Positions 6,623 to 9,929 of a stretch of DNA of 64,000 nucleotides are shown here, piece after piece. Under the pieces are notes generated by a model that saw only the letters and a program-made list of their open reading frames with translations, searched no databases and was not told the DNA's origin. Numbering within the stretch: the stretch's first letter is position 1; every line of letters begins with the position of its first letter. A program made the translations under genes and the position numbers. This stretch comes from Escherichia coli (GTDB taxonomy: Bacteria > Pseudomonadota > Gammaproteobacteria > Enterobacterales > Enterobacteriaceae): NCBI RefSeq assembly GCF_003790525.1, contig NZ_CP033634.1. The stretch is one strand, 5' to 3'.

Positions 6623-7552
6623 TCAGCGATAAACCGAACGTGCAATGCGGGTATATGTATGCCTGACTCCGCGAATGGCAATACTATAAGCTAGGATGTT
6701 CTCCGGTAGTGCCATCCCCATATAGCCGGTATCACCAATATGGTGCAGATCGGCCCCTGCCATTTTGCTCATTAACGCTATTTGACGAATGGTGCTTATA
6801 TCAGCACCTTCCTGGGACGTGCCAATAGCAGTCATCGCCAGTACACCATTGGCATGTGCGGTATCTATAAGCGATGTCACACGCTGCTGACTCATTCCGG
6901 GTATCGTGCCTGGAGCCGGGATCAACACAATGTCTGCGCCTTGAGAGGCAAACCAGATAACATCCTCCTCGCTGATAATGCTGCTGCCACTTTCATGCGC
7001 CACTCCAGCACCGTGCATTTTTCCGGTAATAATCACGGCACCATCCCCGATTGCCTCGCGAATATCTCTCGCTGCCAGCCCCAGAGCGCAATTGCTGACC
7101 CCGTTATTAGGATTACCTGTTAGCACCAGAATTTTTGCGCCCATATTAACCAGCTTACGGGCATTGTTAGCCGTTGCTGCCCGCCCTGATTTCATTTTCC
7201 AGATATCGTCATGAGCAACAGCAAATTCAGGGTCTACGGCCTCCAGGTTCACACCAATGATACGGCCTGTCAGGCGTTGCAGTTCATGCAACGTTTGTTC
7301 TGGTGCAATACCTGCGGGTAATCCCTGAATATACGGATTTTCACTGTCAAACATATTAACCAGTAAAATATCTGCGCCCTGTGATGCAGCAAGTTCGGCA
7401 TTCGTGACATTGTTCAGTAATGGCTGGGTAATCGCGATGGATTCGCTAACCATCACACGGCCTTCACTGGCACGAATAGCGTACAGAAGCCTGGTTTTAT
7501 CCATCGATACAAAATCGGAAGCACAGCAGTCCAGCAGCCGTTTATTGGTCAT
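6623..7552 (-). CDS. Uncharacterised protein (309 aa) co-transcribed with PTS EIICB; probable sugar-phosphate metabolic enzyme
   Basis: ORF overlaps the upstream EIICB gene by 4 bp (operon); Gly-rich motifs but family not recognised from memory. Confidence 0.55.
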   Translation of the reverse strand: MTNKRLLDCCASDFVSMDKTRLLYAIRASEGRVMVSESIAITQPLLNNVTNAELAASQGADILLVNMFDSENPYIQGLPAGIAPEQTLHELQRLTGRIIGVNLEAVDPEFAVAHDDIWKMKSGRAATANNARKLVNMGAKILVLTGNPNNGVSNCALGLAARDIREAIGDGAVIITGKMHGAGVAHESGSSIISEEDVIWFASQGADIVLIPAPGTIPGMSQQRVTSLIDTAHANGVLAMTAIGTSQEGADISTIRQIALMSKMAGADLHHIGDTGYMGMALPENILAYSIAIRGVRHTYTRIARSVYR

Positions 7553-8946
7553 TGAGCGCCTCCTTGCTGATTAACCAGTTCAGTGATTTCACCCGCGATA
7601 ATTTCTGCCCGGGTTCCTACAATGACCTGTAGCCCGGTATCTCCGCGTTTTACAACGCCCATGGCTCCGAGTTTCCTGAGTTCTGGCTCTTGAATCATGT
7701 CCATGTTTGCGACCTCCAGGCGCAGACGGGTAATACAGGCATCAATACGCATAATGTTTTCTTTCCCACCCAAAGCGGCAAGATACGCCGTTGCTAAATC
7801 GGAGGAACCGGCAATAGCTGAAATGGTTTCCTCATTATCTTCTCTTCCTGGCGTAGCGAGATTAAAGCGACTAATAAAAAAGCGGAACAGGAAGTAATAA
7901 ATCAGTGCCCATAAGCCCCCAATAGGTAGCATTAATAACGGATGTGAGGCCAGTCCGAATGACAGTACATAATCAATTAACCCAGCCGAGAACGTAAATC
8001 CAAGTTTAATCCCAAGAATTTGACACACAGCCATAGAAACGCCAGTCAGTACCGCGTGGATACCGTAGAGCACAGGCGACAAAAACAAGAAGGTGTATTC
8101 CACGGGTTCCGTAATCCCCGTCAGGAATGTCGTCAGCGCGAGTGACAGGAATAACCCGGCGACAGCGGGGCGTTTATCTTTCGGGGCTGCGTGATACATC
8201 GCGAGGCATGCAGCAGGCAGAGCAAACATAAATACCGGGAAATATCCCGCCATAAATGCCCCGGCAGAGGGATCACCGGCAAAGAATCGGTGGATATCAC
8301 CGGTCACCACGGTACCATCCGCCGCCGTAAAGGAACCGAAAACAAACCAGACCAGCGAGTTAACAATATGGTGCAAACCCACGACGCGAAAAAGAACGTT
8401 CAGTATACCGTACACAAAGGGGCCAACCGGGCCAGACGCTACCAGCCAGTTACCAATTGCATTCACGCCATGCTGTACCGGTGTCCATGCCCAGCCAAGA
8501 ATAACACCCAGCAGCAGGCAACTTAACCCAGTGGCTATTGGGACAAAACGTTTTCCACCGAAAAAAGCCAGATATTCCGGTAACTTGATATTATGATAGC
8601 GATTATACAGCACGCCCGCCAACAACCCAGTCAGAATGCCAGACAGGACCCCCATATTAAGTTCAGGATTGATAGCCTGCATCACAGAAGTCAGTACCAG
8701 GTAACCAATCGTACCTGCCAGGCTGGCGGCACAGTGATTGTCCTTTGCAACCCCCCCACTGATACCTATGGCAAACAGTAGTGGTAAGTTTTCAAACAGT
8801 GTTTGCCCTGCTTTCATTACAAACACAATATTGAAAACATCGGGCTGCCCAAGACGTAGCAGCAACCCGGCGACGGGTAATACAGCAATAGGTAGCATCA
8901 GTGCCTTGCCCAGGCGCTGCATGATGACGAAAAAATTCCCCTGCAT
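7549..8946 (-). CDS. PTS system glucose-family EIICB component
   Basis: Multi-pass membrane EIIC followed by C-terminal EIIB domain with ACITRLRLEV phosphocysteine motif. Confidence 0.85.
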   Translation of the reverse strand: MQGNFFVIMQRLGKALMLPIAVLPVAGLLLRLGQPDVFNIVFVMKAGQTLFENLPLLFAIGISGGVAKDNHCAASLAGTIGYLVLTSVMQAINPELNMGVLSGILTGLLAGVLYNRYHNIKLPEYLAFFGGKRFVPIATGLSCLLLGVILGWAWTPVQHGVNAIGNWLVASGPVGPFVYGILNVLFRVVGLHHIVNSLVWFVFGSFTAADGTVVTGDIHRFFAGDPSAGAFMAGYFPVFMFALPAACLAMYHAAPKDKRPAVAGLFLSLALTTFLTGITEPVEYTFLFLSPVLYGIHAVLTGVSMAVCQILGIKLGFTFSAGLIDYVLSFGLASHPLLMLPIGGLWALIYYFLFRFFISRFNLATPGREDNEETISAIAGSSDLATAYLAALGGKENIMRIDACITRLRLEVANMDMIQEPELRKLGAMGVVKRGDTGLQVIVGTRAEIIAGEITELVNQQGGAQ

Positions 8947-9179
8947 AAATTCACCTCAGTAGTCGTTGTTCATTTTGCGCATGAGACAGTAAACCATCTA
9001 TGTACCATTTGTAGACCATAATGTTTTATGGCTAAAAAGACCTACTGATAGATAGCTGTTTTGTGATCTAACGAGCTTTATTTTTCTTCTGTGAGTGATT
9101 TCCAGGATGACAATGGACGCTCACTGGTTAAGAATTGGTATACAGAGATTGAACCAGATATAACCTGCTAAGAGGAACG

Positions 9180-9929
9180 ATGAAAAAAACTCCGCAACCC
9201 GAATTTCATCTTGATGAATCCAGCGCGATGCCGCTGTATATGCAACTGGTTAATGCCATTAAGTTAGCCGTAGCGGAAGGTCGACTGCATCCTGGTGACG
9301 TTTTGCCGTCAGAACGGACACTGGTAGAGACGTTGAACATTGCGCGAGGCACAGCCCGTAAAGCATTGCAGCAACTGCTGGAAGAGGGCGTTCTCGTGCG
9401 TAATCAGGGTTCTGGTACATTCGTTGCTCCACATGTACTTCAATCTCTGCCGTTATTGGAAAGTTTCAGTGAAATGGCCGTTGCCAGTGGTGGAGAAGCA
9501 CAAAGCGAACTGGTCGGGTATCAGCGTCGGGCATCTGCGCCGGAAGAGCGTCGTGCCCTGCAACTGACAGATGGTAAAGATGAGGTTGTGGAGCTAACCC
9601 GACTGCGGAAGATTAACGGTATTGCCGTTTCCCTTCAGACAGCGATTTTACCTGCGGCTCTGCTGGATAAAATCAGTGAACTGGATGAGTCGTTGTACCT
9701 GCATCTGGAGAAGAAAGGCGCTCCAGTGCTGCGGGCGAGTCAGAGCTTCCGCGCAGTGCCAGTGGACAATAAACTGGCACACTATCTGAACATCGGGGAG
9801 CATGAACCACTCCTGTTGGTAACCCGCACAGGCTTCACTCACGAAGATAAGCCGGTGGAATACACCCGGACATGGTGCCTGAATGATTACTATGATTTTA
9901 CGATTGAGCTACATCGAAAAGAATCATAA
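9180..9929 (+). CDS. GntR/HutC-family transcriptional regulator (HTH plus UTRA effector domain), divergent from the PTS operon
   Basis: N-terminal GntR HTH motif LPSERTLVETLNIARGTARKALQQLLEEGVL; 249 aa size typical of the HutC subfamily. Confidence 0.85.
   Translation: MKKTPQPEFHLDESSAMPLYMQLVNAIKLAVAEGRLHPGDVLPSERTLVETLNIARGTARKALQQLLEEGVLVRNQGSGTFVAPHVLQSLPLLESFSEMAVASGGEAQSELVGYQRRASAPEERRALQLTDGKDEVVELTRLRKINGIAVSLQTAILPAALLDKISELDESLYLHLEKKGAPVLRASQSFRAVPVDNKLAHYLNIGEHEPLLLVTRTGFTHEDKPVEYTRTWCLNDYYDFTIELHRKES

Follow-up and report, generated by a model that had tools for sequence, protein, structure and literature searches.

The module analysed here consists of three genes between positions 6623 and 9929 of a 64,000-nucleotide stretch of Escherichia coli DNA (contig NZ_CP033634.1 of assembly GCF_003790525.1), which is referred to as the window throughout. 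It comprises a transcriptional regulator of the GntR/HutC type, a transporter (EIICB) of the sugar phosphotransferase system (PTS) and a 309-aa enzyme of the Pfam family DUF7916. With moderate confidence, the module is interpreted as a mobile, self-regulated cassette for the uptake and conversion of an amino sugar similar to N-acetylglucosamine (GlcNAc), in which the DUF7916 enzyme would act on the sugar phosphate derived from the PTS. The proposed action on a PTS sugar phosphate is based on the agreement of four lines of evidence, namely the phosphosugar clamp of the regulator, the shared operator, the translational coupling of the two structural genes, and an HPr fusion and PTS operon found independently elsewhere. 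An amino-sugar-like substrate is suggested by a transporter of the NagE type, a regulator similar to NagR and the presence of GlmS-type, MurG-like and SIS-domain neighbours in other genomes. The three genes are:

6623..7552, minus strand: DUF7916-family enzyme, 309 aa (Pfam PF25509)
7549..8946, minus strand: PTS EIICB of the NagE type, 465 aa, without a IIA domain (Pfam PTS_EIIC and PTS_EIIB; TIGR01998)
9180..9929, plus strand: predicted GntR/HutC (NagR/DasR-like) transcriptional repressor, 249 aa (Pfam GntR and UTRA)

All three open reading frames (ORFs) are intact. An earlier note on this DNA, made from the sequence without database searches, had described a plasmid-borne GntR/HutC regulator divergent from an operon of an EIICB gene and an overlapping downstream gene, and this arrangement was confirmed by the ORF coordinates and the domains. 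The stop codon of the EIICB gene and the start of the 309-aa ORF overlap by 4 bp (ATGA, 7549-7552), and between the operon and the regulator gene lies a divergent intergenic region of 233 bp (8947-9179). The plasmid location was likewise borne out, as the 3.6-kb region is shared, at 99.8-100% identity, with four or five conjugative plasmids of E. coli from chicken, e.g. pGZM7d, which was typed as IncFIA/MOBF/MPF_F. The best chromosomal orthologues of the module share merely 74-83% DNA identity with it. For the module genes compared with these chromosomal orthologues the ratio of nonsynonymous to synonymous substitution rates (dN/dS) was 0.05-0.10, and together with the intact frames this value indicates that the genes are under purifying selection.

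The transporter matches the Pfam domains PTS_EIIC and PTS_EIIB and reaches 573.5 bits on the NCBIfam model TIGR01998 (NagE-type IIBC), which is above the equivalog-domain cutoff of 553.2. It is 53% identical to NagE of E. coli K-12 over residues 4-458, with the alignment ending where the IIA domain of NagE begins, and both the EIIB cysteine motif IDACITRLRL and the EIIC motif TGITEPVEY are intact and aligned with those of NagE. The previous description as a glucose-family EIICB was therefore right as to the PTS component but too generic, since the protein is specifically of the NagE or GlcNAc type. This type narrows the substrate class to an amino-sugar-like hexose, a specificity predicted from the protein sequence. 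The closest relatives are IICB-only proteins of ~460 aa from Rahnella, Kosakonia, Enterobacter, Erwinia, Pantoea and Klebsiella (67-89% identity), and the next-nearest group is Burkholderia-type NagE (60-62%). The transporter thus belongs to a distinct clade, whose mutual identity is 67-100%, as compared with the values of 60-62% and 53% for the NagE proteins of Burkholderia and E. coli, respectively. RefSeq flags the nagE gene as a pseudogene 'missing C-terminus', and the annotated gene (NZ_CP129283.1 68241-69602) ends 36 bp before the true stop codon. The flag was rejected as an artefact of the missing IIA domain, because ORF and motifs are intact and the IICB-only architecture is normal, being common to the whole clade. 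NagP of Bacillus subtilis is also an EIICB-only protein, and the glucose-family EIIA domains that charge it reside in other proteins (PMC6148471). In a similar way, Crr of E. coli would serve the plasmid-encoded EIICB.

The regulator is composed of a GntR winged helix-turn-helix domain (PF00392, 61 bits) and a UTRA domain (PF07702, 99.7 bits), which assigns it to the HutC subfamily. Its closest solved relative is NagR/YvoA of B. subtilis (E 6e-29), followed by a putative regulator (2ra5), a GntR-family regulator (3f8m) and DasR. In NagR the phosphate of the effector is held by Thr90, Ser165-Ile166-Tyr167, Arg133 and Arg135, while Phe89, Glu145 and Tyr228 form hydrogen bonds to the sugar (PMC4333415). 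The NagR residues were mapped onto the plasmid regulator through an alignment with solved NagR. The phosphate clamp is retained (S97, R141, R143 and S171-L172-Y173), and so are the DNA-contact residues that read GG (R46, R56 and G77). At the positions forming hydrogen bonds to the sugar, F96 is kept and the two others differ from NagR, with Q153 in place of Glu145 and C233 in place of Tyr228. Clamp, DNA-contact and sugar positions are essentially invariant in 16 orthologues, the conservative exceptions being S97 (S/T exchange), T231 and C233. Because the phosphate clamp is kept and two sugar-contact residues are changed, the predicted effector is very probably a phosphosugar, and probably one other than GlcNAc 6-phosphate (GlcNAc-6-P) or glucosamine 6-phosphate (GlcN-6-P).

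A candidate binding site of the regulator was located in the intergenic region:

8990..9017, minus strand: putative operator, direct repeats GGTCTAC / GGTACAT / GGTTTAC with 11-bp spacing, 44-71 bp 5′ of the EIICB start codon

This TGGTACA-type pattern of three repeats is unique in the window, with a chance expectation of 0.01 matches. Like repeats, 2-4 in number, are present directly 5′ of the first structural gene at 16 related loci with the GntR regulator, regardless of whether this gene encodes EIICB or DUF7916 itself. The repeats are absent from a variant locus under an AraC-type regulator (L096, described below). A -10-like CATTAT/CACTAT abuts the first repeat, and repression by promoter occlusion would be the natural reading of this position. 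The half-site resembles the dre half-site of NagR and DasR, in keeping with the retained Arg residues that read GG.

The earlier note could not assign the 309-aa protein to a family. Such a family exists, as PF25509 (DUF7916) matches the protein end to end with 402.6 bits (gathering score 27), residues 7-309 aligning with profile positions 1-296 of 296; it is, however, a family without known function. In the NCBIfam scan no model matched the protein, and no publication on the family turned up in a full-text literature search. The RefSeq name of the enzyme is 'DUF7916 family protein', and older records carry the names 'HAD-like hydrolase' or 'PEP phosphonomutase' (PEP, phosphoenolpyruvate). The family is large, with more than 5,400 hits at 90% clustering and 592 clusters at 50%, and it is strongly conserved, as identities of 55-63% to the plasmid protein were obtained for copies from Gemmiger, Faecalibacterium, Lachnospiraceae, Neisseriales, Vibrio and Providencia.

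The AlphaFold2 model of the enzyme is an eight-stranded β/α barrel (pLDDT 82, pTM 0.86). The (β/α)8 TIM-barrel fold is regarded as settled. An alignment of 27 sequences contains 86 invariant columns, which are concentrated at the C-terminal ends of the strands. The invariant positions at strand ends include E37, N66 and D69, N102 and E104, T145-G-N-P, K178-M-H, P212-A-P-G-T, T245-S-Q-E and H270-H-x-G-D. For a wider view of conservation, 73 full-length representatives with identities down to ~31% were used. Among these, G31, R32, E53, D61, G205, P212, G266, D268 and G295 are best kept, followed by E248, K263 and D207; K263 is kept in 63 of the 73 and lies within helix α7. The Gly-rich β7 and β8 loops are conserved as well. 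Weak Pfam matches were obtained to phosphate-binding barrels such as NanE, IGPS and NMO. A Foldseek search against the PDB revealed no close relative (best TM ~0.5), the matches being PrpB, isocitrate lyase, aldolases of classes I and II, NanE and RPE. The HMM and structure searches yielded DUF7916 and a TIM barrel, and not a family unrelated to sugar metabolism. Neither of the two older names was upheld. The HAD hydrolase name was rejected, since none of the 27 members examined had a HAD-family Pfam match at E <= 10 and the model is a (β/α)8 barrel, and the PEP phosphonomutase name is unsupported by the profile searches, in which no PEP-mutase profile was matched.

The same three-gene module occurs between rbsD and kup in an enterobacterial chromosome, in Citrobacter sp. 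Awk 4 and in Rahnella, and a copy flanked by insertion sequences (IS) has identical gene lengths. The strongest link of the family to the PTS in the representative search is a 428-aa protein, P0300, in which an HPr domain (87 bits, GLHARPA motif) is fused to DUF7916 (280 bits). The gene of this distant homologue directly precedes overlapping, separate genes for glucose-family EIIB, EIIA and EIIC (L101 664-3895; L102 1279-3253) and comes from a high-GC metagenome-assembled organism of an unrelated lineage. Moreover, one DUF7916 copy comes after an ascorbate-type PTS operon, and a member of 31% identity is located directly 5′ of a GlmS-type gene (GATase and two SIS stretches). On a Klebsiella-type plasmid scaffold (L096, 4039-9252), DUF7916 and a SIS-domain protein (PRK02947) face away from an AraC regulator, an EIICB and a PhoC acid phosphatase; PhoC is also encoded 3′ of DUF7916 in Raoultella and Entomohabitans.

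Neighbouring genes within 4.5 kb of DUF7916 were counted at 80 species-representative loci. The orthologous GntR regulator was present at 13 of these loci, a ~600-aa protein without Pfam match ('c12') at 7, a GH3 glycosidase at 4, an EIICB at 3 (two adjacent, with 89% and 57% identity, and one distant, with 36%) and the PhoC acid phosphatase at 2. A MurG-like GT-B protein neighbours DUF7916 in at least 8 loci. At the remaining loci no partner recurred, and most contexts were uninformative (e.g. purB/phoPQ, radA/sseB, proB/proA, efeUOB, a formate/nitrite transporter, RuvC and catalase).

According to the preferred reading, the module would operate as follows. Without substrate, the NagR-like repressor would bind the three TGGTACA-type repeats spaced by 11 bp over the promoter of the EIICB and DUF7916 genes. 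The IIA-less EIICB would take phosphoryl groups from EI, HPr and a glucose-family IIA of the host, either Crr or the one within NagE, and the imported sugar would arrive in the cell as a 6-phosphate. The phosphosugar or its product would then fill the phosphate clamp of the repressor, upon which the operon would be induced. The translationally coupled DUF7916 enzyme would convert the phosphosugar in one step to an intermediate that the host can use, e.g. GlcNAc-6-P, GlcN-6-P or fructose 6-phosphate, with epimerisation, isomerisation or a lyase reaction as the likeliest chemistry.

This scheme can be compared with known systems. The module and the nagP and nagAB-nagR system of B. subtilis are alike in an EIICB-only, glucose-family transporter of the GlcNAc type, in a GntR/HutC repressor whose phosphate clamp and GG-reading DNA contacts agree, in TGGT-containing half-sites at the promoter and in the expected induction by a sugar 6-phosphate. 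In contrast to B. subtilis, the plasmid module has neither NagA nor NagB, so that the DUF7916 barrel is its sole enzyme, its half-sites are direct repeats with 11-bp spacing whereas the dre site is (pseudo)palindromic, and its regulator has Q and C at the positions of E145 and Y228, on which grounds its effector probably differs from GlcNAc-6-P and GlcN-6-P. With the nagE-nagBACD system of E. coli the module shares EIIC and EIIB domains (53% identical to NagE) and a divergent promoter region with a possible CRP half-site. It differs in lacking IIA, in its downstream enzyme, in being plasmid-borne and mobile, and in a HutC-type regulator within the module where E. coli uses ROK-type NagC. A third comparison is murQ-murP, in which a PTS for N-acetylmuramic acid and an etherase form a minimal cassette of PTS and one converting enzyme, from which GlcNAc-6-P enters the nag pathway. 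The two cassettes follow a common logic, with an IIA-less, Crr-dependent permease and a single enzyme leading to a nag intermediate, whereas MurP is of the β-glucoside/sucrose type, MurQ is a SIS-fold etherase to which DUF7916 is not homologous, and the regulator of murQ-murP is of the RpiR type.

Most relatives of the plasmid have lost the module. In about 550 plasmids from E. coli, Klebsiella and Shigella, and likewise in 173 complete E. coli genomes, the match is confined to the first 416 bases of the query (6400-6815; L002 6001-6416), a stretch that contains the last 192 bp of the DUF7916 gene. The alignment is explained by a single deletion:

6816..10328, no strand: segment of 3,513 bp absent from ~550 related plasmids (alignment, single deletion)

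The deleted segment covers the 5′ 80% of the DUF7916 gene, the EIICB gene, the regulator gene and an adjoining resolvase remnant. The junction reads CCTGG|CGGTTCC with GG microhomology, and the remnant left on the plasmids is annotated as a partial 'HAD-like hydrolase' or as a 'DUF7916' pseudogene. As ~550 relatives exhibit this one deletion, the window represents the rare undeleted form, and the 192-bp pseudogene fragment found in hundreds of resistance plasmids is explained as the scar of a 3.5-kb module deletion.

Several observations weigh against the preferred reading. The loss of the module from ~550 plasmids means that E. coli and Klebsiella can usually do without it. At most of the 80 loci, DUF7916 is not accompanied by a PTS, regulator or sugar gene, and since most copies stand alone, the substrate of the family cannot come from this transporter only. 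Two Firmicutes loci (L062 and L069) link DUF7916 to sugar ABC transporters, which deliver unphosphorylated sugars. In addition, no close solved homologue points to a reaction, and the similarity to NanE is apparently out of register. Class I aldolase chemistry via K178 at the end of β5 is weakened by a Lys/Arg exchange within the family, with Lys in 51 and Arg in 15 of the 73 representatives. The earlier note had presumed that the enzyme acts on the phosphorylated sugar. This presumption gains support from the coupling, the operator, the clamp, the HPr fusion and the neighbours, but it is qualified by a PTS link that is not universal, with an EIICB at 3 of 80 loci.

The observations on stand-alone copies and on the deletion could also indicate that DUF7916 has no more than an incidental connection with the PTS. 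The enzyme would then have a housekeeping, repair or biosynthetic role, perhaps with the GT-B protein, and would only share a mobile cassette with a second GlcNAc transporter; on this plasmid the module would be functionless cargo that is being lost. The majority of the family stands alone among unrelated genes, the commonest partner after the regulator is a protein of glycosyltransferase fold, which suggests synthesis over catabolism, ~550 plasmids hold the deleted remnant only, and RefSeq flags the EIICB gene as a pseudogene. This explanation is considered unlikely in view of the ATGA overlap, the identical module in several chromosomes and in the IS-flanked copy, the operator that is kept before DUF7916 with or without EIICB, the HPr fusion in an unrelated lineage and the strong purifying selection on intact frames; the pseudogene flag is, as stated above, an artefact of the missing IIA.

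The HPr fusion can be taken in another direction. Instead of a simple isomerase, DUF7916 might be a PEP- or pyruvate-handling barrel, either a lyase or synthase through which a phosphosugar loses or gains a C3 unit, or a protein that takes part in phosphotransfer with HPr. An enzyme of purely catabolic function is not usually fused directly to HPr. The acidic residues E53, D61, D207, E248 and D268 are the best conserved in the family and would fit a metal site, and the legacy name 'PEP phosphonomutase' points the same way. However, the fusion may merely reflect the neighbouring genes of the operon, and DUF7916 has no phosphohistidine swivel domain, so that this explanation is likewise given a low probability.

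The last alternative makes DUF7916 a functional analogue of NanE (N-acetylmannosamine-6-phosphate 2-epimerase, PF04131), acting as an N-acyl-hexosamine-6-phosphate 2-epimerase and allowing growth on N-acetylmannosamine or a close analogue via GlcNAc-6-P to NagA and NagB. NanE is the sole recurrent secondary Pfam match of the family (17 of 27 members, best E 2.4e-4, all below the Pfam threshold), NanE of C. perfringens is the top match of the family profile among PDB sequences (E 0.08), and hhalign aligned DUF7916 with E. coli NanE at 87.5% probability, placing DUF7916 residues 195-285 (β6-β8) against NanE residues 88-165. One epimerase would suffice to join the product of a GlcNAc-type PTS to the host nag genes, and the sugar contacts of the regulator differ from those of NagR, as an epimer would predict. 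Both proteins are TIM barrels, with an N-acyl-hexosamine 6-phosphate as the substrate, presumed in the case of DUF7916. Nevertheless, DUF7916 has 309 aa and NanE ~229 aa, NanE is outside the best structural matches, and the match is local, extending over ~75 residues with sub-threshold scores. NanE residues 88-165 presumably correspond to β4-β6, in which case the alignment is shifted by two βα units and the catalytic positions of the two proteins would not correspond. The homology was therefore rejected as functional evidence, and the epimerase is regarded as quite improbable.

A role of the module in anti-phage defence was rejected as well, since a PADLOC scan of the three module proteins and the GT-B partner gave no match to any defence model.

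Besides the operator, the following features were recorded in and around the module:

9059..9068, no strand: conserved box TTTTGTGATC (GATCACAAAA on the operon strand), possible CRP half-site
9124..9157, no strand: imperfect palindrome and conserved box (…GGTTAAGAATTGGTATAC…) just 5′ of the regulator gene
6565..6622, minus strand: two hairpins directly 3′ of the DUF7916 stop codon, possible operon terminator without a T-run
10017..10295, minus strand: serine recombinase/resolvase remnant (C-terminal part) adjoining the module (Pfam HTH_7 and end of the Resolvase domain)

The TTTTGTGATC box is present in most orthologous intergenic regions and is variant or absent in a few. Judged by its sequence it may be a CRP half-site, the second CRP half being poor. 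The palindrome at 9124-9157 has 20-nt arms of 70% complementarity, and its GAACCAATTCTTATCCA box recurs across orthologous loci; the element may be the promoter of the regulator gene or a site of autoregulation. The hairpin region 3′ of the operon has a free energy of -22.8 kcal/mol (z -2.8 versus shuffles), and a consensus terminator scan made no call there. The resolvase remnant is labelled in RefSeq as a partial HTH protein.

The left flank of the module consists of a gene for a methyl-accepting chemotaxis protein (MCP) of PAS-HAMP-MCP architecture, an IS256-family (Mutator-type) transposase gene and a gene for a YdeO-like AraC regulator, and on the right a small ORF and a gene of the ParA type come after the resolvase remnant. 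The chemoreceptor gene (1847-3976) encodes 709 aa and abuts with its 3′ end the transposase gene at 3967-5175, while in pGZM7d it adjoins IS26 instead and the annotated product is shorter (518 aa). The YdeO-like regulator gene (5506-6306; 203 bits on the YdeO model, which is under the cutoff) belongs to the plasmid backbone that is common to the deleted plasmids and in relatives lies near PerC-like and ProQ/FinO-like genes. A run of AAGATAAC octamer repeats at ~10390-10450, 5′ of the small ORF and ParA-type pair (10467-11392), is longer in the deleted plasmid L002 and is probably a partition site. In two Serratia fonticola loci, a stand-alone DUF7916 gene is found by IS110 and ~4 kb from a pair of a small ORF and a ParA-like gene; the resemblance to the flanking pair of the window hints at a shared mobile-element history. 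Further downstream, umuC is truncated in this plasmid lineage (window 11596-12777; pGZM7d 72252-79142), where an insert with PIN-domain and AbiH genes and IS2 separates it from umuD and a dinI-like gene, and related plasmids keep umuDC intact.

The architecture of the module is that of an ordinary PTS catabolic operon, and its unusual part is an orphan, highly conserved TIM-barrel enzyme replacing the canonical NagA and NagB. Three database annotations are corrected by the analysis, namely 'HAD-like hydrolase', the pseudogene flag on nagE and, as a name without profile support, 'PEP phosphonomutase'. The problem posed by the enzyme is now bounded, with GlcNAc-like hexosamines and their 6-phosphates as candidate substrates, a defined operator, a phosphosugar pocket in the repressor and an HPr fusion. 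The family is unusually conserved between Proteobacteria and Firmicutes (55-60% identity) and is present in prominent gut commensals. It is tentatively proposed, as a possibility and not as the expected outcome, that DUF7916 could carry out an undescribed conversion of amino-sugar phosphates, in certain genomes perhaps together with a new MurG-like GT-B protein. This would be a new single-enzyme route that has been recruited repeatedly to PTS of the glucose family, once by fusion to HPr, and that could serve enterobacteria and gut Firmicutes such as Gemmiger, Faecalibacterium and Lachnospiraceae in the use of an overlooked GlcNAc-like nutrient or metabolite.

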